Below, one piece after another: positions 39,896 through 58,074 of a DNA stretch of 64,000 bases. The stretch lies in IMG/VR virus record IMGVR_UViG_3300028833_000104, positions 1-64,000 of that record; one strand, given 5' to 3'. The stretch comes from a virus. Its lineage: Duplodnaviria > Caudoviricetes. The notes beneath the pieces are model-generated. The model had not been told where the DNA came from, made no database searches, and saw nothing but the letters and a program-made list of their open reading frames with translations. The number at the start of each line of letters is the position of its first letter. The first letter of the stretch is position 1. Made by a program: the position numbers and the translations under genes.

Positions 39896-40330
39896 ATGAG
39901 TACAAGATGTTTAGTTGGTTATAGAGATAAGGATACAGTTCATTATATTTACTGTCATCACGATGGCTATGTGGAGGAACCAGGTGTTGGTTATACCTTA
40001 TTTAATTATTATAAGGATTTAAATAAAATTAAGGATTTAATTTCAAGAGGCAGCACTTCTGATATTGCACCTAACGTTGAAGATTGTAACTTTTACAAGG
40101 AAAAAGGTTGGGGTGAAAAAACCGTTGATGTAGCTAATTATGGCTTTAATTGTCAAGATGATGCGGAATATATTTATCTATTCCAAAACAATGAATGGTA
40201 TGTTTTATATGCAGATTATGAAACTGATAGAAATAACATTGAAAAGGTTGAATATTTACTAAATAAACCTGAGGATGACGAGGAAGATATACCTACTTGG
40301 GATTCAATTTTAAATAAGGTATATAATTAA
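39896..40330 (+). CDS. Hypothetical phage protein (MSTR...IYCHHDGY type)
   Basis: MSTRCLVG...IYCHHDGY...EYIYLF...WYV pattern common in phage early regions. Confidence 0.65.
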   Translation: MSTRCLVGYRDKDTVHYIYCHHDGYVEEPGVGYTLFNYYKDLNKIKDLISRGSTSDIAPNVEDCNFYKEKGWGEKTVDVANYGFNCQDDAEYIYLFQNNEWYVLYADYETDRNNIEKVEYLLNKPEDDEEDIPTWDSILNKVYN

Positions 40331-40345
40331 AATATACCTTTTTTT
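40316..40345 (+). terminator. Intrinsic terminator
   Basis: AAGGTATAT-aattaaa-ATATACCTT plus T-tract. Confidence 0.7.
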
Positions 40346-40381
40346 ATTGTATAATTATTATATATTGAAAGGATTGATTAT

Positions 40382-41044
40382 ATGTTAAATGTAAAACCAT
40401 TAACTCCTCAACAAATTGAGGAAAATAAAAATTTATTTATAAGTTTAGTAAATCAAATTAACATTGATGGGGTAGATAAAGATGGATTGATTAATTATCT
40501 ATTAAATTCAGATTTCTTCTTTGCACCTGCATCTACTAAATATCATTCAAACTTTGATGGTGGATTATGCCAACATAGTTTAAATGTTTATTTTGCACTA
40601 AAGAATTTATATGAAATGTATAGACCTACTATTGGTGATATTGATGAGAATAGTTTAATTATTTGTGGTTTATTCCATGATATTTCAAAAGTTAATTTTT
40701 ATGAAAAATATACTTCAAATAAAAAAATTTATAGTGAACAAGGTTCAAAACATGATAATGGTGGAAAGTTTGATTGGGTAGCAGTAGATGCTTGGAAGGT
40801 TAGAGAGGCAAAAGATAGATTTATTGCTGGAACTCATGAGGAAAATTCAGTACTATTATTAAGTAGATTTATTCCTTTAAATAATGATGAAACTGTTGCC
40901 ATTATGAACCATCATATGCACACTGGCGATGGTGTTCAATTTATGGACCAAACCTTTATTTGTAACCAATATCCATTAGCAGTTTTATTACATACAGCTG
41001 ACTTCTTATCAACATATTGTGTAGAAGGAATTGTAAGTGAATAA
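40382..41044 (+). CDS. HD-domain phosphohydrolase
   Basis: APASTKYH...GGLCQHSLNV...LFHDISK...HHM...LHTAD. Confidence 0.88.
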   Translation: MLNVKPLTPQQIEENKNLFISLVNQINIDGVDKDGLINYLLNSDFFFAPASTKYHSNFDGGLCQHSLNVYFALKNLYEMYRPTIGDIDENSLIICGLFHDISKVNFYEKYTSNKKIYSEQGSKHDNGGKFDWVAVDAWKVREAKDRFIAGTHEENSVLLLSRFIPLNNDETVAIMNHHMHTGDGVQFMDQTFICNQYPLAVLLHTADFLSTYCVEGIVSE

Positions 41045-41393
41045 CTTAATTAAAAAACAATTGGAATCAGTACAAATTGCCGATTTAACTCATTTTAATG
41101 AAGAGGATAATACTTATTTTATACCTCAAAAGAAAACCATTAAAATCGAGAGAAATAAAGCATATCTAATATTTGTAAATGATTCCTTCTTTTATAACAA
41201 AGTATTACAGGATAATTGAAATAAAGGATTAGTTTTAAAAGATAGATATATAAAAGCAGAAGTAGATGATGTTATGGGTAAAATGATTAAAGTTACCTGT
41301 ATTGGATACGATGTTTTAAATAGAAAAGATACAAATAATTTCTGAAATGGTTGATTACCATTAGATAGTATTCAAGTATTACAAAAATTATAA
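41037..41393 (+). CDS. Hypothetical protein, 118 aa
   Basis: GTG start; extended via 3 TGA (…NNFWNGWLP…) to TAA. Confidence 0.6.
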
Positions 41394-41420
41394 TGTATAT
41401 TCATATAAGGAGATGATTTA

Positions 41421-42440
41421 ATGGAAGCGTTGGCAGTTCGTTATAGACCCCAAAAGTTTGAGGATGTCTGCTCTCAGGGCTCTATAATAACAATATTAAA
41501 GCAACAATTACAAAAGAAAGAATATACCAACTGTTATGGATTTTGTGGGCCATCAGGTTGTGGTAAAACAACTATTGCAAGAATTTTTGGTAACGCCATA
41601 AATCAAGGAAAAGGTGAAATAATTGAAATAGATGGTGCTTCTAATAACGGTGTAGATAATATTAGAAAGATTATTGAAGAAGCAAGTACTAGATGTATTG
41701 ACGGTGCTGAATATAAGATATTTATCATTGACGAATGTCATATGATTACAACAGCAGGATGAAATGCATTCTTAAAAACAATTGAGGAACCACCTAAGTA
41801 TAGTATTTTTATGTTCTGTACTACAAATCCTGAAAAGATGCCTGCAACTATTAATAATAGAATTATGAAATTTAATCTTTCTAAAATTGATACAAATTTA
41901 ATCAGAAGTAGATTAGAATATATTTGTCAACAAGAAGGTTTTACAAATTATAATGATGCTTGTGATTACATTTCAAAATTGTGTCAAGGTGGAATGAGAG
42001 ATGGTATTTCATTATTAGAAAAAGCAGCAAATTATAATACCGATTTAAGTATTGATAATGTATTAGAAGCATTAGGTGATTTTAGTTATGATTCATTCTT
42101 CAATCTAACAGGTGATTTGTTAAATCAAGATGAAGGTAATGTTTTATTAACTATTAATAATTATTTTAATCAAGGAAGAGATTTAAAATTATTTGTTGAC
42201 CAGTATTTAGATTTCACATTAGATTTAGCAAAATATTGCTTATATAATGATATTAATTATGTTAAGATACCTGCAAATCTAGCTCCTAGATGTCAAGGTT
42301 ATTCAGGTATTCCTAATATTTTAGATTGGACTAATAGATTAATTGGCAAGGTATTAGATGTTAAAAATGCTATTAGATATGATATTAATTCCAAGACAAC
42401 AATTGAAGCTATGTTTATAGCAATAAGTAGAGGTATTTAA
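41421..42440 (+). CDS. dnaX: DNA polymerase III gamma/tau-like clamp loader ATPase, 339 aa
   Basis: LAVRYRPQKFED, GPSGCGKTT, EIDGASNNGVD, IIDECHMITTAG(W=TGA)NAFLKTIEEPP, GGMRDGISLLE. Confidence 0.92.
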
Positions 42441-42442
42441 AT

Positions 42443-43297
42443 ATGAGAATGTTTGATCATGATGAAGATAATAGCTATTATTGGCTGGAAAAAGATAATG
42501 AGGAATTAAAAGCACAAATTAAAACCTGGAAATGAAGATATGAAACTCTTGAAAAAATGTTGTTAAATGTTTGTAGACATACTTATATGTTAAAGGCAAA
42601 TCAAATCAATGTTAATCAATTATTTGCTGTAGTAAATGGTTGTTTAACTAACGAAATAATTGATAGATTTACTTGGGATTATTTAATGGATGAAGAATCA
42701 AAGAAATTACAAACACATAAAAAAATTCAAGATGTTATGAAGAAGTATATTCATGATTATGATGATGTAGAAATAAAAACTGATGAAATTGATGAAAGTG
42801 GTTCCCCAGTTATTATAACAAGTCAAAAAAATATTTATGAAGGCAACTTAACTCAACAAGATATTGAAGATGCTTTTAAAGAAGAAAACTATTTAAATGA
42901 TACTGAAGTAAATAATTTAGAATTAGATGAGATTGACAAAGCGGCATCACCTGTTATAGAGAGACAAGATGATGGTAGATATAGAATTAGATATGATTTA
43001 GCATATGATAGTTTATCTCCTTTATGGCCTAATGATTCTTTATATAAAGGTAATTTACCTGATGAAGTTTTATTAAAAGGTTTAAATGAAGATTCTGAAG
43101 GTTGTTTATCATCAAGTCAAATTGAAGATGCAATTGAAAGTGGAGAGATTAATATTAATTTAAATAATTTTAATATGTCGGATTTTGGAATAAAACAAGA
43201 ATTCGGATTAAGTAAAGAAGATATTGAAAAGATAATTTATAATCAAGATGTAATGAAAATATTAAAAGATATTATAGATTTAGTTAATAATAAGTAA
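42443..43297 (+). CDS. Acidic hypothetical protein, 284 aa
   Basis: Upstream extension through 1 TGA to ATG 42443 with GAGG RBS. Confidence 0.6.
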
Positions 43298-43308
43298 GAG
43301 GTGTTTTA

Positions 43309-44103
43309 ATGGTAGGTCAAACAAAATTATTAGAAAAATTAAATAAATATAACATAGATAATTTTCCAAGATCTACTATGTTAATTGGTGAACAAGGTAT
43401 GGGTAAACATACCTTAGTTAACTATATTAAGGATAATATTTTACATTTACCTATAGTAGATATAACAGACAATTTAAATAAGGAATATATTGATTTAATT
43501 TATTTAAATCCAAATCCATTAATTTATATTATTGATTTTAATAAGATTACTGAAAAAGAATCTAATGCAATGTTAAAATTAATAGAGGAACCTATTTCTA
43601 CCTCATTTCTAATTCTATTGGTAGATAATAGAAATAATGTTTTAAATACCATTTTAAATAGATGTATTATATTTGAATTAGAGCAATATAGCATTAATGA
43701 ATTAAAAGAATTTACAAAAGGTTGTAAGAATGAAGATTTAATATTAAATATTGTAAAATCTCCAGGAAAAATTTTAAATAGTAATTTAGATAGTTATATT
43801 GACGAATTATATAACCTATGTAATACTATTGTTACAAAAATAAATAAAGCAAGTTATTTAAATACCTTATCCATTACTGATAAAATTAATTATAAAGATG
43901 AGTATAATAAATTTGACTTAACAGTATTCTTTGATTGTTTAAGTTATTGTTATTATAAAGATTTTTTAGATAATAAAAATAATAAAAGTTTACAACTTTA
44001 TTTATTAGTTTCTGAGAATAGAAAGAAATTAGTAGATAAAAGATTAAATAAGGAATTGTTTGTAAGCAACTTCCTATCTAAGTTATGGAAGGTGGCGAAA
44101 TAA
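43309..44103 (+). CDS. holB: Clamp loader delta-prime-like subunit
   Basis: MVGQ start, GEQGMGK, SNAMLKLIEEP, TILNRC. Confidence 0.7.
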   Translation: MVGQTKLLEKLNKYNIDNFPRSTMLIGEQGMGKHTLVNYIKDNILHLPIVDITDNLNKEYIDLIYLNPNPLIYIIDFNKITEKESNAMLKLIEEPISTSFLILLVDNRNNVLNTILNRCIIFELEQYSINELKEFTKGCKNEDLILNIVKSPGKILNSNLDSYIDELYNLCNTIVTKINKASYLNTLSITDKINYKDEYNKFDLTVFFDCLSYCYYKDFLDNKNNKSLQLYLLVSENRKKLVDKRLNKELFVSNFLSKLWKVAK

Positions 44104-44981
44104 TGGAATTACAGACATTAAAAACTAAAATAGAAAATAATACATTAAATGATGAAATAATTATTTTTAAATATGTAGATAATAAATTTTTATGTAATCA
44201 ATATATAGATAATATTTCAAAACTAAGAAATATGGAAAAAGTTTATATTAATTCCATTTATGAAGCAGAGGAAGATGCTTTTGGTGTTAATGATAGTTTA
44301 TATATTATTGATGTTGATGAACTAAAAGAATATCCCGATTCATCATTTAAGAATTTAATTATTATGTGTAAGAAATTACCTGATAACTTAGAGGTTGACT
44401 TTATTGATGTTGCTAAACCTGTTAATTGGCAAATTGAAGATTATGTTAAATATAGATTACAAGGCTTAGATGAAAATAGTATATTATGGTTATGTCAAAT
44501 TTGTGGATATGATATTTATAGATTAGATTCAGAATGTAAAAAGTTAGAAATATTTCCTGTAGCTTCACAGCAACAAATGTTTAAAAGATTGAAAGAGGAA
44601 AATGGATATTCAGATTTAACAGATTTAAATATATTTAATTTCACGGATTCATTAATATTACATGATATGAAAAATGTAATTAGTATGATGAAAGAAATGG
44701 AATTAATTGATATTGAACCATTAGCTGTTGTAACAATATTATTAAAGAAATTCAAACAATTATTAGCAGTTAAAACAAATAATCAAACCTATATTAAAGA
44801 ATTAAAAATGTCAGATAAGCAAGTTTGGTATTTAAAGAATAATCAGGCATCAAAATTCAGTGAAGGTAAATTAATTAACAACATTGAATTCCTAACTGGA
44901 ATTGATTATCAGATTAAAAGTGGAAATTTAGATTTAAGTAGAGATAATTTATTATCATATATAACTTGTAATGTAATATAA
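44103..44981 (+). CDS. holA: Clamp loader delta-like subunit
   Basis: CGYDIYRLDSECKKL, NIFNFTDSLI, EPLAVVTIL, IDYQIKSG match HolA C-terminal pattern. Confidence 0.7.
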   Translation: MELQTLKTKIENNTLNDEIIIFKYVDNKFLCNQYIDNISKLRNMEKVYINSIYEAEEDAFGVNDSLYIIDVDELKEYPDSSFKNLIIMCKKLPDNLEVDFIDVAKPVNWQIEDYVKYRLQGLDENSILWLCQICGYDIYRLDSECKKLEIFPVASQQQMFKRLKEENGYSDLTDLNIFNFTDSLILHDMKNVISMMKEMELIDIEPLAVVTILLKKFKQLLAVKTNNQTYIKELKMSDKQVWYLKNNQASKFSEGKLINNIEFLTGIDYQIKSGNLDLSRDNLLSYITCNVI

Positions 44982-45010
44982 AAAAAGAGGTTTAAAACCT
45001 CTTTTATTTT
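44981..45010. terminator. Bidirectional terminator at convergent junction
   Basis: AAAAGAGGTT-taa-AACCTCTTTT. Confidence 0.8.
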
Positions 45011-45067
45011 TGTACCTATTACTTTATTATGAATTAATTAAAACCTTAAAATAGAAGGAATTTTCCA

Positions 45068-46357
45068 TTAATTATAACCTAATCTATATACTCTACCACG
45101 CATAATACAATAAATGCAATCATCTTCCTCGGATGCATATAAAGCATTAGTATCAAAAGTACCGAAAGTTTCTATTTGTGATGATGGAACAGTTAATAAT
45201 AAATTAACCTCAAAGGTGTCCATATTAACTTCCTTTATTTCAAGATTATTATTTTTTATGTTAAATGTATATAATTTGTTCTTAAACATAACGCCCGGAT
45301 CCCAAGAGCTATCAATAATATCATCACTTAATTGAACATCTAATTTTGTTAATGTATCATTAACTGGATTATATTCATATACATTTCTACCTATTGTATT
45401 GAAGTTAGGAGCATCTCCTATTGCTAATAAATAGATTTTATTATTATATACTGCTGTGATATAATTTTTTGGATAGGTACTACTACCACTTCCTGGTAAA
45501 ACTGCATTACATCTTGAATAGCTATTATCTGGCACATGAATTTTATAAATAGCGTTACTCATACCACTATTCATATTATTTGCACCAAATACATATATAT
45601 CATCACCTATAACGGCAGAACTTGGAATTCACCAATAAGAATTATTAGCATTATATCCTACAAAGCTATTACCATTAACATCTAAATAACTATAACCTAA
45701 AATAAGACCAAATCAGCTACCGCCACCTAAACCACCAATTCTATAAAGTTTGTCTCCAACTGTTTGTACGCTAGAACCTGATACTAATCTTACCCAACCA
45801 TTAGTATATGTTATTGTAATATTAGTAGTGGTAACTTCACCGGTATGTAAATCGATATACTTTACTTTATCATTAGTTGTATTACTTCCTACTTTATATA
45901 ATCTATTTTTATATCAAGCAGGAGTTCAATTTGTTACAAAATCTTCTATATAATCAACCAAATCAAAAGATCAATATGGAGCTTTCTTTTCTTCCTTGTT
46001 TGGATTTGTTATAGTTAATTTAACTTTAATTTTAGCAATATTTTCTTGTCCTTCTCGAGCATAAGGAGCTAAATTAAAGGATTTATTTTTTGTTTCTAAA
46101 ACGTGATTATTAAAAGTTATTATATAAGTAACTTGAGGATTATACTCAGTTAATTCCTCTAATCCCTCAACATCCCAACTAATAACGGCTCCATTTGCCT
46201 GTAAATTTACTACCTTAGGAACTTTTAAACCTTGTGGTAAGTCTAATACATTATTAGAAAAATTTCTAGGCAATAATTTTTCTGAAGTATTAAATTGATA
46301 TCTAATTGCATCACCTAAATCCTCTAGGTAATCATGTAAATTATTTTGTTTACTCAT
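45068..46357 (-). CDS. Kelch-repeat beta-propeller protein with fibre-type N-terminus, 429 aa
   Basis: ORFs joined via 5 TGA; LEDLGDAIR N-terminus; VGDKLYRIGG, IGDDIYVFG, YNNKIYLL...YEYNP repeats. Confidence 0.75.
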
Positions 46358-46368
46358 TAACTAATCAC

Positions 46369-47634
46369 CTACTTACCAAAAGTTCAAGTTTTATGCTGAC
46401 TCATATTGAATAAATATACCTTACCCTCATATACATGACCATATTGTGGAGTAATGTTATATTCAATGTCTAATTTTTCTATTGTTAAATCTGTTGGATT
46501 AAATACAAATATGCCTCCATTTGATTCCTCAGTTTCCTTTGTGAATATATAGATACTATCTCTAAAATTAACACATATAGGATCTCTAAAAGAATAAGGC
46601 ATTTCAATACTTAATTTTTCAAGTGTTTCAGTTGTGGAATCAAATTTTCAAATTTCATTACCGGCTCCTCCTCAACTGGTTGAATTTGCACAAATTAAAT
46701 AAATATCAGTTGAATATGAACAGATACCATAATCAAACATAGATGCATAGCTTCCTGAACCATGAGGTAAAGTTGCAGCTAATCTAGTAAATGTATTAGT
46801 TTCTGTATTGTGTTTAGTTATCATATTGTAATAACCGTTATTTTGTCCACCAAATATATAAACATTATTGCCAACAGCTGCAGCCTCAACTAATCTTGCG
46901 ACTTGTAATGCTGAATTGTATTGACTTAATGATGGTATATAGTTATTTATTGATGTATCAAAAACCCTTGACCAGTTGGTATAATATCTAAGATTTTGTT
47001 CCCAACCACAATAACATCATATCCTATCTCCTACTGTAACTTGAGCACTTAATCCACCTGTAGTGTTATCTAAAAATACAACACCTAAATCCTCAATTTC
47101 TCCATCTAGAATATTTTGTCTTTTAACTGTTTTGCTAGTTGAAGATGAGTTTGTAGTATCTGAAACCGTATAAACATATTTATCAGCAAAACCATAACTA
47201 TAACTTCCATATAATGTGGTATAAGGTAGTTCTATTATTGCATCTGTTGGAATATATTCAATTTTAATTTCGCTTTCCTCTTTTCCTATAATATCATCTA
47301 AAATAGAAATTACCGCAATATTAGGCATTCCTGATGATATATAAGGAGTTAAATCCACATAATTATTTCTAGTTACAATAGTTTGGTTATTTATGTCAAT
47401 TTGATAGAATGTCGTATGACTGTATCTTTCTAACATATAATTATCAGAAACAGTCCAGCTTAAAATAAGATTACTATCAATATCCACAGAAAGAAATTCA
47501 GGTAATACAATTCCTAAATCTATATTTCTAATTTTGTTTGAAAATTCTTGAACCTTAATTAATTCTTCTGTACCAGTTTTTTGTCTTATAGAATTAGCAA
47601 TATTGGTAAAATATTCTTTTAAAATATTATCCAT
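46369..47634 (-). CDS. Kelch-repeat beta-propeller protein with fibre-type N-terminus, 421 aa
   Basis: ORFs joined via 4 TGA; FTNIANSIRQKTG N-terminus; AVGNNVYIFGG, IWKFDST, IFVFNP repeats. Confidence 0.75.
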
Positions 47635-47638
47635 AATA

Positions 47639-48019
47639 CTAAACCTCTGAGTTCAACTCATCTAGAATTAAACTATCAATATATTCCTTATTCTCGGTTT
47701 TTATTTGTGCTATCTGTTCATCTGAATAACTGCTAATATCTAAATCTATAGGTCCAACATCCTCTAATTCATTACCATACATATCAAGTAATATTAAATG
47801 AATTTGAGGTTTGTTCTCATCATATTCAACTCTAATATTATGAATAAATCATTTATCCGCTTTTGTTTGTTGTATAGTAACATCATGTGGGTTATCAGTT
47901 CTTTTTAAATGTTGTTCTACCTTTTCATTGATTAAATCATCAACATGGTTATAAGGATAGAATCCATTATTTTCTAATTCACTATTTCCGAATCCATAAT
48001 CTTTTTTATTTTTAGGCAT
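47639..48019 (-). CDS. Small protein with HxxxxxNPHxVT tail-fibre repeat, 126 aa
   Basis: Absent from code-11 track (1 TGA); HLKRTDNPHDVT; AGGAGG RBS; late motif at 48040. Confidence 0.6.
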
Positions 48020-48039
48020 TTTACATTACCTCCTATCTA

Positions 48040-48049
48040 TTAATTTAGT
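48040..48049 (-). promoter_or_regulatory. Late-type promoter motif ACTAAATTAA
   Basis: Intergenic copy. Confidence 0.6.
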
Positions 48050-48053
48050 TTTA

Positions 48054-49103
48054 TTAGAAATTATCCTTTCAGTATTCCTCAGGTAAACCTGTGAATTCAT
48101 AATTACTTTTTAATATTGTTTTTATGGTAACAACATGGGTTGAAGAATTTAGTAGTTTATTTTTATGTTTTGACTTTGGCTTGTTTTTTAACTTAGGATT
48201 ATATCCCTTTTCATACTTTGAACAATATGGAAAATTTTCATGAAACCATTTATTAAGTACCTTGTTTTTATATATATCTATACTTGAATCTGTATCGTTT
48301 ATACATATCGTATCAAAGTTATTCAAAACTCTATTAATACTTATATCCCCACTATAACTACTTAAATAACCAACCAATAAATTAGAATTTTCTTGTAGAT
48401 TTATTTTATAAAGATATAAAGAGTATAAGTAACAAGTCAAATTTTTACTTTCTCTGAATTGACTTAAACTATCTAATATATCTTTTTCATAATTATTATA
48501 ACATTCGGCTCATTTAGATTTTAAATAAGGCCTAAATTCGTGACCTAATCTTAAATAAGGAATAGAATTTTTTTTATTAAAAATCAAATCGTTGTTATTC
48601 TGACACATTTGGAAAAAATTACTTTTAGTTGTCTTTGGGTCCTGATTGCTGGATTTAACATTAAATTTAACCTTTGATTCCGTAAAAAAATCTGTTGGTT
48701 GTAAACATGATAGTGCATAAAAATCGTCATTTATATAAATAAAATGTTCCTCTAAATCCTTAATATTATGTAAAAATAACTCTATTGTACCACTGTTAAA
48801 TGTTGGTAGAAATCTTCTTGGAATAAATTGTTCATGTAATATAACTTTTATTTTTGTTTGATCTAATCAATCAGGAACTTGGGAATAAGATTGTACTATA
48901 AAAAATAAATTATTAATTCAACTTAAATTTGTATCAATAGATCTAAACAGATATCTTAAAAAATTATCCTGTCCTCGAAATCTATTTAAGGCATTACTAT
49001 CTTCTTTTTTTAGTTTACTTGGATTATACTTATTATATAATTTTATCCAATTTTCATCAGAACTATCAACATAGGGTATAACTAAATCTACTTTAAACTT
49101 CAT
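48054..49103 (-). CDS. Stealth-family hexose-1-phosphate transferase, 349 aa
   Basis: CR1 VDLVIPYVD, CR2 LRYLFRSIDTNLS(W)...VPD(W)L...HEQFIP..LPTFNS.TIE.FLHNI..L.EHFIYINDD, CR4 CIND; 4 TGA. Confidence 0.9.
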
Positions 49104-50574
49104 AATTTATATCTCACCTTTCTTTTAGATATATTTTCTTTTCATCTGTAAATTTATTTATATTAAAGAAATAATCTAGATTAATTTCTTTTTTACTTCA
49201 AACGGCATCAGTTCTTTTGAATTTTTGATTCATAAATTCATCTAATGTTTTGGTCATATAATGATTTATATATATATTTTCATTCTTATAATTTGATGCA
49301 TCTATTACAATCTCATCTGAACAACTTTTACCGGAAGGATAACATGATTTTGCTACGTCCCTTAATTTATCATAGGATGCATAATGAACAGAATTCATTT
49401 TTAATAAACGTTTACCTTTGATTATACATTTACCGGCATTACTGTATTTACCTTTATTTTTAATTATCTTGGTAAAGAAATTAAAAACAGGTATATTTAA
49501 ATCACGTTGAATTACATTATCATCACCAAATAAGTTTCATTTTATTCTTATTTGATCTACATCAATTTTATTTATTTTTTCTAATAAATAATTTATATTG
49601 TCAATACCATAAATAAATTCATCCACATCTAAAAAGGCACATCAATCATATAGTCTATTATATTTTAATATAAAATCATTATAACATTTTTGTTGTAATT
49701 GTGGTTCATGTTTTCCTTTAACTGAAATAATGGTAACAGCATATCTTAAATGTTTTTTAATATAATGTATTAAATCCTCTTTATCCAAATCATTGTTATC
49801 ATAGATAAATATTTTATCAAAACCAAGTTTTAAATGGTATTCCACTCAATTATTTATGTAAAGTTCTTCATTTTTTGCAATACAAACAGCAACATTTCCT
49901 CATTTACTAGTTTTTATATTATTTAAAAGCCTATAAACTTTATTAATAAATTGTGTATGAGGACAATCTGTATCTCAAATATTATTATCTATTATCTCAA
50001 CATATTTTAAATTATACTTTTTAACATATATATTAAATTCATTGGAATTATAATTTCATGTTTTAGCCTTATTATTAATTACCTTTGTACCCACAAAAAT
50101 TACCTTCTCTAAAACGTTGTATTTTTTTAAAACCTCTATAACTCCTTCTATAAAGTCTTTATATAAGGTTCCGTCTTTTTTATTTACAGAAAATTCATTC
50201 AAATTAAAAGTAAAATAATAATTTTTATTTTTTAGTAATTCATAATAAAAGTTATTAAATGTTTCACATCTTTTTTTAAGTTCTTGTTGATATTTAATTG
50301 TTGAGGGATCATGATGAGCAATTCAAACGGTATCACTAGGATACTTTGAGAAAAATTCATAATCTTCTGGTCAGCTCTTCTTCCTTGGTACCTTATCATA
50401 TGGTGTATTTATAATATAATCTAAGTATTTATTAGAAAATAATAAATCTAAGCACTTAGGTTTCCCAACAATAACGTTATCCACAGGTCCTTTTATTCGA
50501 TTTTTACCTAAAAATCCAATGCAGGCACAATTTCCACCAATAGACATGAATTTCAAATCTTGTAAATTAACCAT
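49093..50574 (-). CDS. Fusion of DUF1796-like papain-fold domain and GT92/GT2-like glycosyltransferase, about 493 aa
   Basis: Three in-frame ORFs joined via 10 TGA; N-term SIGGNC..GPVD..HHD..KKRCETF; C-term CIAKNE.LYINN(W)VEYHLKLGFDKIFIYDNN, (W)CAFLDVDEF, INHY.TK. Confidence 0.8.
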
Positions 50575-50609
50575 ACCTATCTTTCCTTTCAATAAATAGT
50601 ATTTATATA

Positions 50610-50619
50610 ATAATTTAGT
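50610..50619 (-). promoter_or_regulatory. Late-type promoter motif ACTAAATTAT
   Basis: Intergenic, heads the glycosylation/Kelch cassette. Confidence 0.65.
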
Positions 50620-50647
50620 GATAAAAAGAAAAGAGGTATATTCTTAT

Positions 50648-50956
50648 TTATACCCCTTCATATGGTGCTATTTCTCTAATTTTAACACTACCGTCTGTAA
50701 ATAGTATAGCTTCTATATAAGTAACTGCCTCTATTGGCATTAATCTTATTTCATATTCTACACTTTTACTTTCTCTTACAGCAGTCATATAATAGCTTTT
50801 AATTACATTATCTGTAACAAATCTATTTAATTCATCTCTAAAAATATATTTTAGATACATTCTCTTTTCATTATCTGAATTATGATAAATTCTAAAGTAT
50901 TCTTTAACTTTACTAAGTAATGTACCAAAATTTTTAGGTTCTTTACTTATTACCAA
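50648..50956 (-). CDS. Hypothetical protein
   Basis: ORF overlapping end of VWA gene; start uncertain. Confidence 0.5.
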   Translation of the reverse strand: MVISKEPKNFGTLLSKVKEYFRIYHNSDNEKRMYLKYIFRDELNRFVTDNVIKSYYMTAVRESKSVEYEIRLMPIEAVTYIEAILFTDGSVKIREIAPYEGV

Positions 50957-51831
50957 CTAACAACACCACCATTAAAAGGTGTAGCCTCTGTTAAAATTTG
51001 TGTTGTAGGTTCATTAGCGCTATTAGTAACAATTTCTGAAATAACAGCTGGTAAACTATTCATTGTTACTACCTTGTAATGATCCTCAGGTAATACCTCA
51101 GTAAATGTTTGCTTTGCTAATCTCTTATAATATTGATAGCAAGTTGACTCATCATCTACTGCTAAATGATAAATATCAAATTTTTGAGATGCTTCTTGAT
51201 ATAACTTCTTTGTATCAACATCTGCTTGTTCCTTACTACCCATATAAGCATTTAATGCACTTTTACCTAAAACTGGATTTAGAGGTTCATCACCTAATGT
51301 AATGATAATACCTTTTCTACCTCTATTCCAACAATCTAATTTACAATTATGTAAACCAGCATACCAAGCGATAGAGTAAGATTCAAATTGATTACCTCCT
51401 CCACCACCTTCAAAATATACCTTATCTAAATGTTCTGCAATTCTAATATCTGACTCAAATTGTGACATTTGAATTGGTGCATTATCATATTCAATATCAC
51501 CAATAGCCATAATACTGAATTCAACATCCTTAGTTTGTGATAAGATATCAGTCATAATCTTATTTAAAGTTTTTGCAACCTTAACAGCACCGTTACCCAT
51601 TGAACCTGTAACATCTAAACCTAAAATTACAGGAATTGTATTTGGATGCTCTGCACTATCGCAACATTCTCTAATCTTATTCTTAATATTTAAATCTTCA
51701 TTTAAACGTCTAGAAGTAAATCTTTCTTGAGCTGTAAAGCTATCTGTTACAACTCCTGACTTATCTAAAGTATAACCTCTACTAGTTGCATAGCTTGAAT
51801 AAGAACTTGTAGTCCAAGATCCGCCACCCAT
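50950..51831 (-). CDS. von Willebrand factor A (MIDAS) domain protein
   Basis: MGGGSW start; GLDVTGSMG, AIGD, QFESD, EGGGGGNQFESY, TLGDE. Confidence 0.85.
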   Translation of the reverse strand: MGGGSWTTSSYSSYATSRGYTLDKSGVVTDSFTAQERFTSRRLNEDLNIKNKIRECCDSAEHPNTIPVILGLDVTGSMGNGAVKVAKTLNKIMTDILSQTKDVEFSIMAIGDIEYDNAPIQMSQFESDIRIAEHLDKVYFEGGGGGNQFESYSIAWYAGLHNCKLDCWNRGRKGIIITLGDEPLNPVLGKSALNAYMGSKEQADVDTKKLYQEASQKFDIYHLAVDDESTCYQYYKRLAKQTFTEVLPEDHYKVVTMNSLPAVISEIVTNSANEPTTQILTEATPFNGGVVSW

Positions 51832-51834
51832 AAA

Positions 51835-52443
51835 TTATTCCTCCTTTGTTTCTACTTCTTCGTCTTCATCACCAAATAGGTTATCAAACATTCCGCCTTC
51901 ACCATCGAAGTTAAACATATCTCCAAATGGATTAGATCCACCTGACATCATCATTAACATCATTGGATTCATTCCGCCAGTATTTCCACCAAATAGGTTT
52001 CCACCATTACCAAACATTGTATTCATCATCATATACTTCATAATGGTATTCTTATCAAATGCCTTATTACCAAACATTGATACAATCTTTGAATACATAT
52101 AAGTTCCACCTAAGAATGTATGTCTTTCAGGTAGAATATTTTTAATTGATGCATCATCATAATTTAAAATCTTAATTTCTCCATCAGTTTCAGGTGCTAG
52201 TACATATGCAGGTTTACCACTAACTAAAATAATATCTCCTGCTTTAACCTTATTTGTAGGTACTACGAAGAAGAATTCTGAACCAATATCAAATACGAAA
52301 TTATCACAATTAATTAATCTTTTCTTCTTTGCATCATAATACTTATAATCATTACCAATCTTTACTGCCATTTGTCCATTTAAACCTAATCTAATAAGTC
52401 CTGGTTGAACTTTACCAAATGTAAAATTACTTAATACACTCAT
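51835..52443 (-). CDS. Hypothetical protein with Met/Gly-rich low-complexity C-terminus
   Basis: MKYMMMNTMFG...MNPMMLMMMSGG; AGGAG RBS; TTGTATAAAT at 52475-52484. Confidence 0.7.
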   Translation of the reverse strand: MSVLSNFTFGKVQPGLIRLGLNGQMAVKIGNDYKYYDAKKKRLINCDNFVFDIGSEFFFVVPTNKVKAGDIILVSGKPAYVLAPETDGEIKILNYDDASIKNILPERHTFLGGTYMYSKIVSMFGNKAFDKNTIMKYMMMNTMFGNGGNLFGGNTGGMNPMMLMMMSGGSNPFGDMFNFDGEGGMFDNLFGDEDEEVETKEE

Positions 52444-52468
52444 TTTTAATATCTCCTTTTCTTTTTTA

Positions 52469-53602
52469 CTAATTATTTATACAATTAACTTCATCATAAA
52501 ATCTAAAAATCTGAGTAAAATTTTTATTTTTTATTTTTTCTGAAGGTAATTCCTCTTCATTACAATGTGTAACTACTAGATAATTCTTTGCATATAGATT
52601 ACTATCTATAATATCTGAATCAATTCTTTCCATCATATTTTGAATAGATTCATCATCAAACTTTGCAAATCTAATACAACCTTGATATAAATTTGGTTTA
52701 TTAGTTTGATCTTCATAATCTAAATCAATATCTTCGTTTTCTAATACACCATCACCGTGTCTACTTAGATAAGTTCTAGTTATATAATATCTATGAATTT
52801 CATGCTCAGTTTTTTGAGCGTCTGCCATATATAATAACCATTCAGGAATAATTGAACCTGTTCTAGTAGGAGTACCATTTACTTTATCATACTCCTTATC
52901 TAATCCTAAACCTTGACCTTGTTCAAAAGTAATGTTATCATATTCATTATATATTTCCTTCATAGATTTAATTGCAATATTATTAAAGAAGAAATCTAAA
53001 TCTTTTAAGAAATTATTAATAATGAAATTATCTTCCTTAATTAATTTACTTTCTTCATAATCACTATTCTTAATCCATTCTAATTCCTTATAATATTCCT
53101 TTATTTTTAATAGTTCTTCAACCCATATATCTTTATTACCGTATAGGTCTGAAACCCTTTTAAAATGGAAGTTTTTATCATTGTATCTATCAATAGTCTC
53201 TTTAATACCACAACCTGTACTTCTATTACTAATACCTCTTCTAGTACCTTTACCTCTTAATTTCTCTCTTACAATATTTGCTAAACAATCAAATGGAGTT
53301 GTTAATCTACATTCATAACCAACATATAATAAAGGTTTATTTCCTAATTCTACAAATTCTTCTCTAAACTTAATAGGATTTACAATAAATTCTGAACTAG
53401 CATAAGTTGCAGCACCTTTTAGTGTTGCACTTCCAAAATGATGGAATACATGTCTTTTACCTTCATATACCACGGTATGACCTCTTTGTGGACCACCATT
53501 AGTTAATACTACAACACCTTCTTTTGGAGTTATGTAGTTTGTAAATAAACCTTTTCCTTCATCACCATAATTGGCTCCAATTACAATATTTATTTTTTTC
53601 AT
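52469..53602 (-). CDS. purA: Divergent adenylosuccinate synthetase-like protein
   Basis: IGANYGDEGKG, NGGPQRGHTV, STGCGIKET, FEQGQGLGLD, TRTYLSRHGDG. Confidence 0.8.
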   Translation of the reverse strand: MKKINIVIGANYGDEGKGLFTNYITPKEGVVVLTNGGPQRGHTVVYEGKRHVFHHFGSATLKGAATYASSEFIVNPIKFREEFVELGNKPLLYVGYECRLTTPFDCLANIVREKLRGKGTRRGISNRSTGCGIKETIDRYNDKNFHFKRVSDLYGNKDIWVEELLKIKEYYKELEWIKNSDYEESKLIKEDNFIINNFLKDLDFFFNNIAIKSMKEIYNEYDNITFEQGQGLGLDKEYDKVNGTPTRTGSIIPEWLLYMADAQKTEHEIHRYYITRTYLSRHGDGVLENEDIDLDYEDQTNKPNLYQGCIRFAKFDDESIQNMMERIDSDIIDSNLYAKNYLVVTHCNEEELPSEKIKNKNFTQIFRFYDEVNCINN

Positions 53603-53604
53603 TA

Positions 53605-54030
53605 CTACACACCCCATTTCTGTAAAACATTGTTGGCAAAATCCTCTGCCCATTTTTGATTATGAGGGTCCTCAGGCTCATAATCACATCCATAATCCTC
53701 TATATCATAAGCAGATATCCAACCATAATTAGGATCTTCATATCCACCACGTTGACGCATTTTATCATATTCCTTGTAATACTCGTATGCTCCTCTAGAT
53801 AAATATGTTTCTTTTAAAAATTTAAAAGCTTCGTCTCTATTACAAGGATAAGTATCTTTATATCTATATGGTTCTAATGTTGGTTGTACATTATCTTCAA
53901 TAACTTTACCGATATAATTAGGTCCGGAAACTAAATCTCCAACCTTAATATTTTCATTTGCTTTATAAACATATTTGGTTGATGAATAAGTATTACCCAT
54001 ATAATATTGTTCTAATCTAACTAATCTCAT
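53605..54030 (-). CDS. Hypothetical protein
   Basis: Operonic ORF. Confidence 0.6.
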   Translation of the reverse strand: MRLVRLEQYYMGNTYSSTKYVYKANENIKVGDLVSGPNYIGKVIEDNVQPTLEPYRYKDTYPCNRDEAFKFLKETYLSRGAYEYYKEYDKMRQRGGYEDPNYGWISAYDIEDYGCDYEPEDPHNQKWAEDFANNVLQKWGV

Positions 54031-54031
54031 A

Positions 54032-54271
54032 TTATAACACCTTCTTAATTACACCGTATGCTGAATTATCACCGCTATATTGCCAACGAACAATACCATC
54101 TTCATCTCTATACATGTCTTGTTTTTGGTGTTCAGGTTTTAAATAGGATTGAAATACATCCCATCTATCCTCCCAATCACAAACTGCTTTAACATCAGCA
54201 ATACAAATCTTTTCATCGGTAATTGAATCTAAATATTTTATATCTTCAAATACAATTATTACCGCTCTCAT
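54032..54271 (-). CDS. Hypothetical protein
   Basis: AGGAGG RBS. Confidence 0.6.
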   Translation of the reverse strand: MRAVIIVFEDIKYLDSITDEKICIADVKAVCDWEDRWDVFQSYLKPEHQKQDMYRDEDGIVRWQYSGDNSAYGVIKKVL

Positions 54272-54282
54272 ATTTAATCCTC

Positions 54283-55560
54283 CTACTTTTTATTTTCTAA
54301 TTCTCTACAAACCTTAGCAATTTCCTTTAACCCCTTTTCAGCGTATTGTAGGTTCTTTACCTTAAATGAAAAACCAATTCCTCTTTCCTTATTATAATCA
54401 AAACTCTTAACAACAATACCTTCATGTTGTAAATAAGTTTTCCATAATTTATCATTTTCATTTGGATGATATTGTAAACCGGTATTGATTGTTTGAGGAG
54501 TCCAAGCAACACCTTCAGCATATTTTACTAACTTATCAATAGTATCAAATTGACCCATATCATTAATTACATCTACTAATGGAACTCTTTGTAAACCTAA
54601 CTTATCAAGAATTGGTGCCATTTCATACCAGTTTCTTTCAATCCACTTACCATCAATTAATTCCTTTAATCTAAATACAAACCATTGTATTTCCTTAAAG
54701 TCATAAATATTTTCTTGAATACCTGGACCTACTTGTTCACCTTGAATCATTAATAAGTGACCAGTTTTCTTATAATATTCCTTTAACTTCTTTGCAATAT
54801 CATATCTTTTTGCTGTGTTATAGAAAAGTATACCATTACTTTCACCTTCAACTAATCTATTATTTCTAGAACATACATAGAATTCATACTTCTTTTTAGG
54901 GTCTAATGAACAAGTAAATGATTGACCTTCCATCTTAGCTGTAATAAATGCGCTAGTTCCAGGAAACTCGCTAATAAGTGCTTTACGATTTTGAATTGTA
55001 TCTTCATCAGACTTTGAAATAATATTTGTTGGAAATGAGCCTTTTGTATACTTTCTGCGTCTAGCATCCATATACATATTTCCAATCCATCTAGTTAATT
55101 TATGTTTTAAGAAGAACTTAATAATTCTAGGAACCTTTGGCATCTTTTTAGGGGACGCATCCTCTTCTGGTTCATACTTTCTAATATTTAATTTATCAGT
55201 TACATCAGTTTCAGGTTTTAAATTTTCAGGTAATCCTGCTTCTTTTAAAGTTACGCATAAACCCCAAGACTTAACTCTATCACCTTTTTCACCATTTAAA
55301 TCCTTTGCACCCATTGTCATAGGCTTAATTAAAAATCCTTTTAAGTCTTCTCTATAACAACGCTTTCTTAAAAATTCCCATTTTTGCTCTACTGGTAAAA
55401 TAGCACCTTCTTGAATAAATACCATTTTATCACCAACATTATTTTCTACTGGGACAATTGCTTCATAACCATTTTCCTTGAATGTTACTACACAAATTCT
55501 ATCCTTTTCAAACATCTTATTTTTTGTTTCAATACTTACAATACTTGCTAAATCTCTCAT
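54283..55560 (-). CDS. RNA ligase (Rnl2/DRB0094-like)
   Basis: TAKMEGQS (motif I), VCSRN, QGEQVGPGIQ, EGIVVK, SFKVKN; N-terminal OB-like domain. Confidence 0.85.
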   Translation of the reverse strand: MRDLASIVSIETKNKMFEKDRICVVTFKENGYEAIVPVENNVGDKMVFIQEGAILPVEQKWEFLRKRCYREDLKGFLIKPMTMGAKDLNGEKGDRVKSWGLCVTLKEAGLPENLKPETDVTDKLNIRKYEPEEDASPKKMPKVPRIIKFFLKHKLTRWIGNMYMDARRRKYTKGSFPTNIISKSDEDTIQNRKALISEFPGTSAFITAKMEGQSFTCSLDPKKKYEFYVCSRNNRLVEGESNGILFYNTAKRYDIAKKLKEYYKKTGHLLMIQGEQVGPGIQENIYDFKEIQWFVFRLKELIDGKWIERNWYEMAPILDKLGLQRVPLVDVINDMGQFDTIDKLVKYAEGVAWTPQTINTGLQYHPNENDKLWKTYLQHEGIVVKSFDYNKERGIGFSFKVKNLQYAEKGLKEIAKVCRELENKK

Positions 55561-55571
55561 ATTACCATCTC

Positions 55572-56123
55572 CTAAACTATTCTCATAACTTGTTTTACTT
55601 TTAATTTTGAATATGGATTTAAACCATTTTCCATATAAACATCTACAATAATATATGTCTTATCTAAAACTTTAATATAGTCATATTTATCAGCTAACAT
55701 ACTATTAGTATAAATTATTGTATCGTCCTCTTCATCACCTATACAACAATTAATTTCATAAAGGTTAAAATTTTCTGTATCAAAAACTTTTGCTTTTAAA
55801 TCAAATCTAATACGGTTTGCTACAGAATCTTCTAATTTATTAGAACTAAAATTAAGCCAAACTTGTCCGTGTTGAGGATCTTCTAATTCAGAATTAGATT
55901 TATCCTTTTCTTTCTTTTCAGGACCTGGACTTATAAATGTTATACTAGCTTCCATTAATAATATTAAAGTTGTCATTCCCCAAAATATCCAACTAAATGG
56001 AGTTATAATTGAGGTAGAATCCTCTTTTACATTAATAATGATAAAGATATAAAATGGAATCATAAATCCTAATACAATTAATGTCATTATTAAAAATGTA
56101 ATTAATTTCTTTTTCCTAGTCAT
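55572..56123 (-). CDS. Membrane protein (2 N-terminal TM helices)
   Basis: Hydrophobic segments in first 65 aa. Confidence 0.6.
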   Translation of the reverse strand: MTRKKKLITFLIMTLIVLGFMIPFYIFIIINVKEDSTSIITPFSWIFWGMTTLILLMEASITFISPGPEKKEKDKSNSELEDPQHGQVWLNFSSNKLEDSVANRIRFDLKAKVFDTENFNLYEINCCIGDEEDDTIIYTNSMLADKYDYIKVLDKTYIIVDVYMENGLNPYSKLKVKQVMRIV

Positions 56124-56187
56124 AATTTTACACCTTCCTTTTAATTTACATTTATATTATATATTAAAATATAAATAAAATCAAGAC

Positions 56188-56598: not shown

Positions 56599-56610
56599 AT
56601 AATTATTTTC

Positions 56611-56928: not shown

Positions 56929-56971
56929 CTATTTCACCTCTAATTTTTAATTTTCATATTATTTATACAAT

Positions 56972-56993
56972 AAAAAAAGAGCGATATTCGCTC
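56972..56993 (-). terminator. Intrinsic terminator after nrdG
   Basis: GAGCGA-atat-CGCTC hairpin plus 7-T tract on - strand. Confidence 0.7.
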
Positions 56994-57018
56994 AAATTTT
57001 AATATTTTTTAATATTTT

Positions 57019-57546: not shown

Positions 57547-57594
57547 AATTAGTACCTCCACCTTATAAATAATTATACAATAAACAGGAAAAAT

Positions 57595-57613
57595 AAAAAG
57601 GTCTTTTGACCTT
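57595..57613 (-). terminator. Intrinsic terminator
   Basis: AAGGTC-aaaa-GACCTT plus T-tract on - strand. Confidence 0.6.
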
Positions 57614-58067: not shown

Positions 58068-58074
58068 TGTATTA

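Follow-up and report, generated by a model that had tools for sequence, protein, structure and literature searches.

A Stealth-enzyme and fibre-gene cassette in a gut myophage, with a possible role in virion (phospho)glycosylation

In some mycobacteriophages (Che8, Corndog and Myrna), phage glycosyltransferases attach O-glycans to the virion's capsid and tail-tube proteins at their C-termini, according to the accounts in two papers citing that work (Freeman et al. 2023 Cell Host Microbe, cited in PMC12619734 and PMC12691614). The cassette described here, from a large gut myophage that reads TGA as tryptophan, is similar in that it encodes its own soluble glycosyltransferases, which are predicted to be co-expressed with structural genes and to work on particle proteins in the cytoplasm; in addition, in relatives of its Stealth gene the enzymes immediately follow the capsid gene, some of those capsids having Ser-rich tails. 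It differs in its enzyme families (Stealth, a GT92-like GT-A enzyme and a DUF1796-like domain), in the phosphodiester-linked sugar expected instead of a plain O-glycan, in the position of its genes beside Kelch fibre genes and outside the structural block, and in showing no acceptor tag in the 57%-complete record; its glycosylation role is a predicted one.

Stealth enzymes include the capsule polymerases CsaB and CsxA of N. meningitidis, CpsY of M. tuberculosis and human GNPTAB, the last of which acts on protein-borne glycans and so provides a precedent. The phage enzyme aligns with the family over its full length and keeps the invariant residues, but is phage-encoded, lacks a membrane anchor, ends in a clade-specific C-terminal tail and is paired with a glycosyltransferase. 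The chlorovirus PBCV-1 capsid and mimivirus fibrils are also glycosylated by virus-encoded machinery. Those giant viruses likewise apply cytoplasmic machinery of their own to surface proteins, and the fold of one cassette domain finds matches among giant-virus proteins; their hosts are eukaryotic, however, their virions are unrelated, and our data give no support to a role of the fold-matched proteins in glycosylation. Finally, Gram-positive phages possess β-propeller receptor-binding proteins, such as phi11 Gp45 with its platform domain. Like these, the two Kelch proteins of the cassette combine a short conserved N-terminal segment with an exchangeable propeller and occur as paralogous copies (P0004 and P0005), but their place in the virion is a predicted one.

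Genes of the cassette

The window is the whole 64,000-nt stretch analysed; the available record of the source phage is 100.8 kb, or 57% of the genome, without head genes. Translated with code 4, positions 45068-50592 (minus strand) encode five soluble proteins in tiled ORFs, with 10, 4, 1, 5 and 5 in-frame TGA codons in P0001 to P0005 (25 in all); the P0001 gene has ten TGA and no TGG codons. Code 11 splits the same region into 10 minus-strand fragments of 61-205 aa, which bears out an earlier note on this DNA that had described five co-oriented genes broken or hidden in that code. P0001 likely starts at ATG 50574, with the RBS AGGAAAG upstream, and P0004 likely starts at M10 (47634). Transmembrane segments and signal peptides were absent from all five proteins (maximum KD19 1.37), and the stretch between the cassette's two terminators has no gene for an exporter, flippase or membrane anchor.

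49897..50574, minus strand: P0001 N-terminal domain (aa 7-232), α/β, with invariant Cys, GPxDN and HN in the family alignment
49120..49893, minus strand: P0001 C-terminal GT-A domain (aa 234-491), GT2_4/GT92-like, DVDEF motif
48054..49103, minus strand: P0002, Stealth-family hexose-1-phosphate transferase (Pfam, invariant columns, profile matches)
48057..48095, minus strand: P0002 tail beyond CR4, FTGLPEEYWKDNF, clade-specific and common to co-encoded enzymes in relatives
47639..48019, minus strand: P0003, 126 aa, single tail-fibre repeat HLKRTDNPHDVTIQQ (phrog_8147, E 0.0019)
46369..47634, minus strand: P0004, N-terminal helix, β-sandwich, S/T-rich linker SDTTNSSSTSKT and Kelch-type propeller
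45068..46357, minus strand: P0005, P0004 paralogue of the same architecture (25% identity, E 2e-24, full length)

Residues 234-406 of P0001 matched Glyco_tranf_2_4 (PF13704, 55.3 bits) and Glyco_transf_92 (PF01697, 40.8 bits), both above the Pfam cut-off, while the DUF1796 HMM (PF08795) had no match at E≤1 to P0001 or to relatives of its N-terminal domain. The earlier description of P0001 as a DUF1796-GT92-like fusion is therefore upheld in its GT92-like half; the DUF1796 half is not recovered by HMM, although the fold is similar. When BFVD was searched with the AF2 model made for the N-domain family (pLDDT 89), eight of the ten best matches were giant-virus proteins called 'papain-like cysteine peptidase' (lowest E 1.4e-4), which we take to be the Pfam name for DUF1796, and one further match was a 615-aa giant-virus 'glycosyltransferase'. 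Matches in the PDB were weak (Z≤7.7) and enriched in SGNH esterases. The domain is modelled as DUF1796-like by fold only.

P0002 starts within the end of P0001, the overlap being 11 nt. It matched Stealth_CR2 above the cut-off (98.4 bits, E 3.3e-28) and CR4 and CR1 below it, and retains 23 of 23 invariant columns of the Stealth family alignment, in agreement with the Stealth phosphotransferase call made earlier. Its Stealth profile aligned at full length with CpsY (8j2n, E 7e-44), the best PDB match, and with the GNPTAB catalytic domain (7s6n, E 1.5e-42). Judged by these residues and profiles, P0002 and the P0001 GT domain are real enzymes and look catalytically intact.

The fibre-repeat protein reported in the same note is P0003, which contains DNPHDVT, an instance of the DNPHxVT motif. 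An all-library phmmer search found this motif also in proteins of 426-1794 aa with 3-11 copies each; phrog_8147, 'tail fiber', was matched by 21 of the 24 motif proteins scanned, a set that includes 21 of the 426-1794-aa proteins. The P0003 search returned 27 matches, five of them full-length homologues, some extended at the C-terminus, and P0003 is a probable fibre base or adaptor. The claim of two Kelch propellers also stands: P0004 matched Kelch_6 above the cut-off (41.9 bits), and P0005, whose own Pfam Kelch matches are all sub-threshold, is assigned through full-length paralogy. PF24681 was matched by P0005 in a six-frame search, and its secondary structure was read from a low-confidence AF2 model (pLDDT 49.8). 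Solved phage receptor-binding proteins gave no sequence match or reliable fold match to the Kelch proteins at this model quality (pLDDT 49.8). A relative has a recombinant protein, P0126, in which the P0004 N-terminus is linked to all of P0005.

Promoter motif and terminators

50630..50659, minus strand: terminator-like hairpin with T-run (11-pair stem, T-rich tail)
50611..50619, minus strand: ACTAAATTA copy 1, 36 nt upstream of ATG 50574
48041..48049, minus strand: ACTAAATTA copy 2, putative internal promoter; P0003 starts 21 nt further downstream
44983..45005, strand not assigned: bidirectional hairpin terminator separating the cassette from convergent clamp-loader genes

The upstream hairpin terminates a TGA-free operon directly before the cassette's promoter motif, and the ATACCTCTTTTCTTTT junction before the motif is common to the source phage and its 166-kb relative G001. 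Beyond the downstream hairpin lie genes for clamp-loader subunits, convergent with the cassette. ACTAAATTA occurs 12 times in the window against 4.4 ± 2.1 expected, a count that 0 of 100 shuffles reached, and it is also found ahead of the sheath gene, in two copies, and of the baseplate-wedge and tail-fibre genes; the orthologous genes of G001 are preceded by it too, as are the G001 cassette and its P0003 homologue. These positions suggest that ACTAAATTA is a putative late-type promoter element. The earlier note had already linked the motif to tail genes, a link that these data confirm; it had placed both copies correctly except for numbering one base off (50610 and 48040), and the terminator it put at 44981 is the downstream hairpin. 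With no terminator found between the Stealth gene and P0003, transcription from the first motif should extend over all five genes.

Stealth loci and a related cassette in other phages

Stealth genes are common among uncultured phages, with 161 loci in IMG/VR. Of the 80 loci that a Stealth query retrieved for a neighbourhood survey, 43 have Stealth co-oriented with and at most 5 kb from MCP, portal, terminase or tail (tape-measure-like) genes. These 43 span at least five unrelated phage groups; since the IMG/VR groups represent few independent lineages, 43 of 80 is not a count of 43 independent events. Often Stealth is immediately downstream of the capsid gene: one group has the order MCP (phrog_10), a gap of ~90 nt, then Stealth and a GT92-like gene, and other orders are TerL-Stealth-GT-portal and MCP (phrog_138)-...-Stealth-...-adaptor Ad2. 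A poly-Ser C-terminus was present at 9 of the 13 loci of the MCP (phrog_29) group. These comparisons speak for phage Stealth enzymes having a role directed at the virion, as far as gene neighbourhoods can suggest one.

Phage Stealth proteins are paired or fused with GT92-like, GT8-like or GT2 domains. A GT92-like domain is fused N-terminally to Stealth in six proteins (P0006, P0014, P0017, P0020, P0021 and P0048), and the P0001 N-domain is fused to Stealth in two (P0013 and P0015) and adjoins it as a standalone protein at loci L001 and L002. The P0001-type GT-A domain adjoins Stealth in ~19 of the 80 loci, mostly directly after it, and DUF1796-like, GT92-like and Stealth modules are adjacent in ~25 IMG/VR loci. 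These fusions and adjacencies establish a Rosetta-stone link among the three enzyme modules.

The G001 cassette was located through P0003 homology, apart from the 80 Stealth-query loci. At this syntenic site the flanks are 75-92% identical and the cassette content is different, and the site is hypervariable. The first part of the G001 cassette encodes a CTP-transferase, an Asn-synthase-like protein, Stealth (33% identity) and a GT-A enzyme; after the motif come a P0003-like protein (52% identity), a Kelch protein, a BspA-type LRR giant and a GT2 enzyme, and all of these genes are TGA-rich. The CTP-transferase is a TagD-like cytidylyltransferase, a kind that also fits teichoic-acid-type host polymers. 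Sugar enzymes and P0003-like/Kelch proteins are thus paired again in G001 by the same logic despite gene replacement. G001 has a second Stealth gene, which immediately follows the tail-fibre orthologue and belongs to a motif-driven operon that also encodes fibre-like proteins. The enzyme-fibre pairing rests on these two related phages, because 0 of the 80 Stealth-query loci has a Kelch or P0003 homologue.

Candidate targets of the enzymes

Since a cassette under a putative late promoter pairs sugar enzymes with fibre-like proteins, the phage probably coats parts of its own particle, and virion (phospho)glycosylation is the best reading of the cassette, with about an even chance of being correct. 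P0001 and P0002 would form a cytoplasmic pair building a phosphoglycan, in which the GT-A glycosyltransferase would add a sugar from a nucleotide sugar, Stealth would transfer hexose-1-phosphate from a UDP-sugar with release of UMP to leave a phosphodiester-linked sugar, and the DUF1796-like domain would probably position or modify the glycan. To our knowledge the acceptor of all characterised Stealth enzymes is a sugar hydroxyl, and the first protein-linked sugar must consequently come from the GT or another enzyme. P0003 to P0005 would be a fibre or adhesin set, a conserved base with the tail-fibre motif bearing two exchangeable Kelch-propeller binding heads. The enzymes most likely decorate particle proteins prior to lysis, the co-transcribed fibre proteins being the first candidate acceptors and the capsid, whose gene is absent from the record, the second. 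None of the proteins in the 100.8-kb record ends in a poly-Ser or similar acceptor tag. The earlier note had arrived at the same reading; its enzymes, terminator-bounded unit and tail-gene motif hold, and what we infer is late expression, the chemistry of the sugar and a virion target. If true, the phage carries a phosphate-linked sugar coat made by an enzyme type undescribed in phages: as that note had supposed, no paper in the literature searched describes Stealth in phages, and tblastn found no homologue in GenBank phages.

Alternatively, the soluble enzymes might act on cytoplasmic precursors of a host wall polymer such as teichoic acid or capsule and so change the glycan recognised by the Kelch fibres, with the effect that the receptor is masked, progeny do not re-adsorb to debris or superinfecting phages are kept out. 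TarP of S. aureus, a prophage-encoded soluble wall-teichoic-acid glycosyltransferase, is a precedent for such remodelling, which would account for the joint variation of sugar enzymes and binding-head genes within one cassette. Bacterial Stealth enzymes, CpsY included, make capsule or exopolysaccharide, and the TagD-type and amidotransferase-like enzymes of G001 are typical of wall-polymer pathways. We nevertheless regard remodelling of the host envelope as unlikely: the motif shared with tail genes suggests a late onset, which would leave little time for wall rebuilding, Stealth genes of other phages are beside capsid, portal and terminase genes and not in lysogeny or early regions, and the cassette offers no means of export or anchoring.

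Quite unlikely is that enzyme pair and fibre trio are independent accessory units, chance neighbours in a recombination hot spot, the enzymes acting on capsid alone, free polymer or, least likely, DNA (we know of no Stealth enzyme that acts on DNA). The two motif copies do define two sub-units, replacement between conserved flanks resembles a hypervariable region, the surroundings are replication and nucleotide-metabolism genes outside the structural block, and the pairing is missing from the Stealth-query loci. Against this, the units have no intervening terminator, G001 repeats the enzyme-then-fibre order with an extra GT2 closing its cassette after the fibre genes, and its second Stealth is again within a fibre-type operon.

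The Stealth tail is shared with other enzymes. In G001, FTGLPDEWWKE(N/D)(Y/F) ends both Stealth and its adjacent GT-A, the form FTGLP(D/E)E(W/Y)WK... being common to this relative and the source phage, and at L001 and L002 a Stealth fusion and the adjacent GT-A-like enzyme both terminate in (Y/F)LYF. Either tail is found in 18 of the closest Stealth homologues; 54 more distant ones stop at CR4. Eukaryotic Kelch proteins bind short peptide motifs, and the one lineage-specific tail ending co-encoded enzymes of different families could suggest that Kelch (in relatives LRR) proteins are scaffolds bringing the enzymes to their substrate, a highly doubtful proposal given that L001 and L002 have tails yet no Kelch gene in the available stretch, and that P0003, the first gene of the Kelch sub-operon, bears a tail-fibre repeat.

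Anatomy of the cassette and its putative promoter motif

The window is phage-like, with a G+C content of about 27%, and makes sense only with TGA read as Trp; its genome record comprises 100,764 bases and is 57% complete (CheckV). As the earlier note had claimed, the cassette genes are broken in code 11, in which 45068-50592 on the minus strand falls into 10 fragments, and code 4 yields five tiled minus-strand ORFs with 25 in-frame TGAs. The left neighbours are convergent clamp-loader genes, and to the right lies a TGA-free operon of 11 genes, whose products include an RNA ligase as well as vWA and PurA-like proteins. Beyond it follow NrdD (1 TGA) and a helicase (5 TGA). The codon split is sharp (window 45068-57561), with 25 TGA against 9 TGG in the cassette and 0 TGA against 31 TGG in the adjacent upstream operon. 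The first gene, P0001, has 10 TGA and 0 TGG, and the corresponding cassette of G001, a related phage, is likewise TGA-rich.

Features of the cassette and its borders
50630-50659, terminator-like hairpin that ends the operon upstream of the cassette
50611-50619, ACTAAATTA copy 1, after the terminator-like hairpin
50574, minus strand, likely ATG start of P0001 (N-terminal domain of ~225 aa, then a GT-A domain at aa 234-491)
48057-48095, minus strand, C-terminal tail of P0002, the lineage-specific peptide FTGLPEEYWKDNF
48041-48049, ACTAAATTA copy 2, before P0003
44983-45005, bidirectional hairpin that closes the cassette

No terminator was found between the P0002 and P0003 genes, sigma-70-like sites were not enriched within the cassette, and all five cassette proteins lack a transmembrane segment or signal peptide. 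The proposal that the cassette and the tail genes have a promoter motif in common held up, because ACTAAATTA is over-represented in the window (12 copies against 4.4 expected, with 12 reached in 0 of 100 shuffles) and lies upstream of the sheath (two copies), baseplate-wedge and tail-fibre genes. Across the 100.8-kb record, 12 copies stand 3-77 nt upstream of 11 same-strand genes. From the sequence we infer that ACTAAATTA may mark late expression.

The motif also precedes two genes of unknown function beyond the tail block, at 57636-58040 (motif at 58059) and 76382-77227 (motif at 77274), and is therefore not confined to recognisable structural genes; the second of these copies is conserved in G001 (68005). 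A PDB sequence search with two motif-driven G001 proteins (410 and 701 aa) identified no head protein.

The enzyme modules and their linkage across phages

The assignment of P0002 to the Stealth family, made in the earlier note, was borne out by a CR2 (PF11380) score of 98.4 bits against a cut-off of 39.4, and the enzyme is complete. HMM scores for CR1 and CR4 were under cut-off (15.4 and 25.1 bits) and the CR3 HMM gave no match; P0002 keeps all 23 invariant columns of the 19-member family alignment. These include the NDD motif of CR2 (N125-D126-D127), D6, V12 and W19 in CR1, H188 and R217 in the CR3 region, and D270, F287 and E298 in CR4, and with CR1-CR4 in order the predicted catalytic domain is full-length. 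Positions 7-306 of the family profile align with Mycobacterium tuberculosis CpsY (8j2n, E 7e-44), and the profile matches the GNPTAB catalytic domain over its full length (E 1.5e-42). Enzymes of this family move hexose-1-phosphate from a UDP-sugar and release UMP.

The GT92-like call for P0001 was likewise sound, with 40.8 bits for PF01697 (GT92; cut-off 23) and 55.3 bits for PF13704 (Glyco_tranf_2_4; cut-off 27.5), and the sequence LDVDEF provides a DxD-type metal site in the GT-A domain. The description of its N-terminal domain as DUF1796 survived in part: it is plausible at the level of the predicted fold, through matches by name in BFVD, but failed the HMM test. The domain has no Pfam match, and the DUF1796 HMM (PF08795) matched neither P0001 at E<=0.1 nor five relatives of the domain at E<=1; a six-frame search of the genome record and four related records also gave no match at E<=1, with control genomes equally without one. 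The family was modelled from an alignment of standalone relatives (pLDDT 89), in which one Cys, a GPxDN motif and an HN motif are invariant. Eight of the ten best BFVD matches to the model were giant-virus proteins named 'papain-like cysteine peptidase' (E 1.4e-4 to 1.2e-2, TM 0.40-0.58), which we take to be Pfam's name for DUF1796, and one more was a 615-aa giant-virus 'glycosyltransferase'. Against the PDB, VIA-align gave Z<=7.7, with SGNH and carbohydrate esterases enriched and mixed with flavodoxin-like folds, and Foldseek returned nothing below E 1e-3. Neither the N-domain profile nor a standalone GT92-like relative matched any PDB sequence.

The three predicted enzyme modules (N-domain, GT92-like and Stealth) belong together. 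Among the Stealth homologues listed, 27 of 120 are fusions of 528-611 aa, six of which have the P0001 GT92-like domain ahead of Stealth, in the order of the window genes, and two a DUF1796-like domain in the same position; others carry GT8-like or GT2 domains. Queried alone, P0002 had no close relative in IMG/VR. Of 161 IMG/VR loci encoding Stealth relatives, 80 were kept for analysis: the GT92-like domain adjoins Stealth in about 19 of these, mostly directly after it, and the N-domain lies directly before Stealth in five and after it in one.

Fibre-like and Kelch proteins in the window and in G001

P0003 (126 aa) contains a single copy of HxxRTDNPHxVTxxQ and matches phrog_8147 ('tail fiber', proteins with HxxxxDNPHxVTxxQ repeats) at E 0.0019. 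An all-library phmmer search with P0003 recovered five full-length homologues and proteins of 426-1794 aa bearing 3-11 copies of the motif. When 21 of the large repeat proteins and three long P0003 homologues were scanned, 21 of the 24 matched phrog_8147 and 18 matched a virion structural family. The P0003 family is found at one IMG/VR locus, in G001, and was not found in JGI metagenomes.

Both proteins downstream had been described as Kelch propellers. For P0004 this proved correct (Kelch_6, 41.9 bits against a cut-off of 25.3; PF24681 over aa 208-409); for P0005 the Kelch HMMs stayed under cut-off, but the protein is a paralogue of P0004 over its full length (25% identity, E 2e-24) and is predicted to be all-beta, the AF2 model (pLDDT 49.8) being too poor for a structure search. 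In each, an N-terminal helix and a beta-sandwich precede the Kelch-type propeller, and P0004 contains the internal linker SDTTNSSSTSKT. P0126, a 599-aa protein on a 236-kb contig of a close relative, joins the first 180 residues of a P0004 homologue to a complete P0005 homologue (84% identical), so that one propeller is lost relative to window 45068-47634. The junction falls where P0004 (VKRQNILDGEIEDLG) resembles the P0005 N-terminus, which points to recombination between repeated N-terminal modules. P0126 had no close relative in IMG/VR, the N-terminal part of P0005 as a query matched only itself, and a local HMM of that module found no more carriers among the sequences gathered in this analysis.

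G001 is a 166.5-kb code-4 phage (93% complete). Synteny with the window covers its tail module and the genes that flank the cassette, with identities of 92% for NrdD, 81% for the RNA ligase and 84% for the clamp loader. Within these flanks, the same terminator-plus-motif junction as in the window leads into a cassette of about 14.7 kb.

Order of the G001 cassette
CTP-transferase (PF01467, E 1.9e-20)
Asn-synthase-like protein (PF00733, E 5.5e-17)
Stealth, 33% identical to P0002
GT-A-like protein, 269 aa
Second ACTAAATTA
P0003-like protein (52% identity), extended at its C-terminus
Two proteins of unknown function
Kelch protein (PF24681, 88.6 bits)
BspA-type LRR protein, 2,013 aa
GT2

Sugar enzymes have therefore stayed paired with a P0003-like protein and binding-repeat proteins through replacement of the genes themselves. 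A second Stealth gene of G001 immediately follows the tail-fibre orthologue, within another operon driven by the motif, together with genes for a fibre-like 549-aa protein, a 226-aa protein ending in GSSSEPEPPVNVAR and a homologue of window gene 21268-21903.

Four genes between the g_53605 gene and the cassette (window 50648-53653; a 102-aa protein, vWA, a 202-aa protein and PurA-like) are missing from the G001 site (90140-90773), so variation at this junction extends to either side of the conserved terminator-promoter sequence.

Phage Stealth genes in morphogenesis modules and proposed particle glycosylation

The strongest new evidence came from the position of phage Stealth genes in morphogenesis modules. 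A labelled morphogenesis gene, always co-oriented, lies within 5 kb of Stealth in 43 of the 80 loci, a count of annotated loci, since neighbour annotation covered part of the 80. By that annotation, such Stealth genes are carried by five unrelated phage groups.

Gene order around Stealth in the five groups
Group A: protease, MCP (phrog_138), ..., Stealth, ..., adaptor Ad2
Group B: MCP (phrog_29), with Stealth 2-2.7 kb downstream
Group C: TerL, portal, MCP (phrog_10), ~90 nt, Stealth, GT92-like
Group D: TerL, Stealth, GT, portal
Group E: tape-measure-like protein of 3,300 aa, followed by a Stealth fusion and a GT

The phrog_29 capsid proteins of group B have a poly-Ser end (e.g. ...SSSSSSSE) in 9 of 13 Stealth-bearing loci (L027, L034, L035, L036, L040, L059, L060, L064 and L069, each with the capsid gene 2-2.7 kb upstream of Stealth); the remaining four carry Stealth without such a tail. 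These ends match the known C-terminal glycosylation of mycobacteriophage capsid and tail-tube proteins (PMC12619734).

In several phages, the immediate neighbours of Stealth and capsid genes include BspA-type LRR proteins (phrog_35892/18805; LRR_5), at L010 8651-9973, L002 6627-8470, L005 11058-12653, L011 7461-8837, L022 11191-16792 and L081 14080-20121. These proteins are candidates for particle-decorating adhesins or glycosylation substrates. In L001, a code-4 phage of 29% G+C, an HNH/homing-endonuclease gene (7115-8422) is inserted between the major head protein and the DUF1796-like and Stealth genes.

In the best reading, to which we would give an even chance, P0001 and P0002 would act together in the cytoplasm to put a phosphodiester-linked glycan on proteins of the phage particle, with the co-transcribed fibre proteins as the first candidate targets. 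The system may represent a Stealth-based variant of known virion glycosylation. In mycobacteriophages, GT genes lie within the structural operon or are co-expressed with it, and other Stealth-bearing phages resemble this type in having Stealth and GT genes clearly inside structural modules; the window cassette has its promoter motif in common with tail genes but sits among replication genes, and this position counts against particle glycosylation. Also counted against it are the enzyme-fibre pairing, which rests on two related phages, and the lack of the Ser/Thr-rich C-terminal tails of the mycobacteriophage capsid and tail-tube proteins from every ORF of the 100.8-kb record, which covers 57% of the genome and does not contain the capsid gene. 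The tail proteins of the window phage end in ...DDKWDEES (tube) and ...SVEVGQN (sheath).

Set beside the head- and tail-module positions of Stealth genes in other phages, it seems unlikely that the enzymes remodel a wall polymer of the host in a way matched to the receptor-binding heads. Chance neighbourhood at a hypervariable site appears somewhat less probable again. Co-encoded enzymes of different families share a lineage-specific C-terminal peptide, either FTGLP(D/E)E(W/Y)WK(D/E)(N/D)(F/Y), in the window phage and G001 (L081 9040-9082 and 9873-9915), or ...(Y/F)LYF, at enzyme gene ends in L001 and L002; one or the other is present in 18 of the closest Stealth homologues, and 54 more distant ones stop at CR4. 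This common tail may be a docking signal; that the Kelch proteins are scaffolds binding it we consider quite improbable. DNA glycosylation was set aside, because we know of no Stealth enzyme that acts on DNA and the genes lie in head and tail modules of other phages.

Particle glycosylation could also take a more specific form, which we hold doubtful: a swappable cassette, each version of which would bring its own binding heads (Kelch/LRR) and the enzymes to coat those heads, or the particle, with a teichoic-acid-like glycan in phosphodiester linkage. The C-terminal docking peptide (FTGLPxExWK... or ...YLYF) would recruit the enzymes. If true, phage particles would have a new chemistry, phosphoglycosylation, and modifying enzymes would be directed to virion parts by a new route.

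Stealth genes are common in uncultured rumen and gut phages (161 IMG/VR loci). Among GenBank phages, window 40000-60000 had no megablast match and P0002 and P0004 had no tblastn match, and a literature search found no paper linking Stealth enzymes to phages. To our knowledge, actinobacteriophages are the only phages for which experiments have shown virion glycosylation; in them it blunts recognition by antibodies. If Stealth enzymes place sugar-phosphates on gut and rumen phage particles, particle glycosylation would be widespread, as judged from the 161 loci, would have a second, chemically distinct form, and could influence host range, immune recognition and the way particles adhere to mucus or host surfaces. 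As a small experimental system, the cassette supplies two enzymes and three candidate substrates for co-expression without phage culture, and the common C-terminal tails suggest a testable recruitment mechanism.

A further ACTAAATTA copy (22842-22850) precedes a two-gene minus-strand unit (window 21268-22850) encoding a 293-aa protein of unknown function and a 211-aa protein with a weak match to phrog_854 'glucosyltransferase' (E 2.4e-5). Homologues of the latter adjoin Stealth in G001/L004, and do so twice in L007, a code-4 phage of 230 kb that carries a GT2/GT2/methyltransferase/Stealth island; the unit may be a further part of the phage's glycan system.
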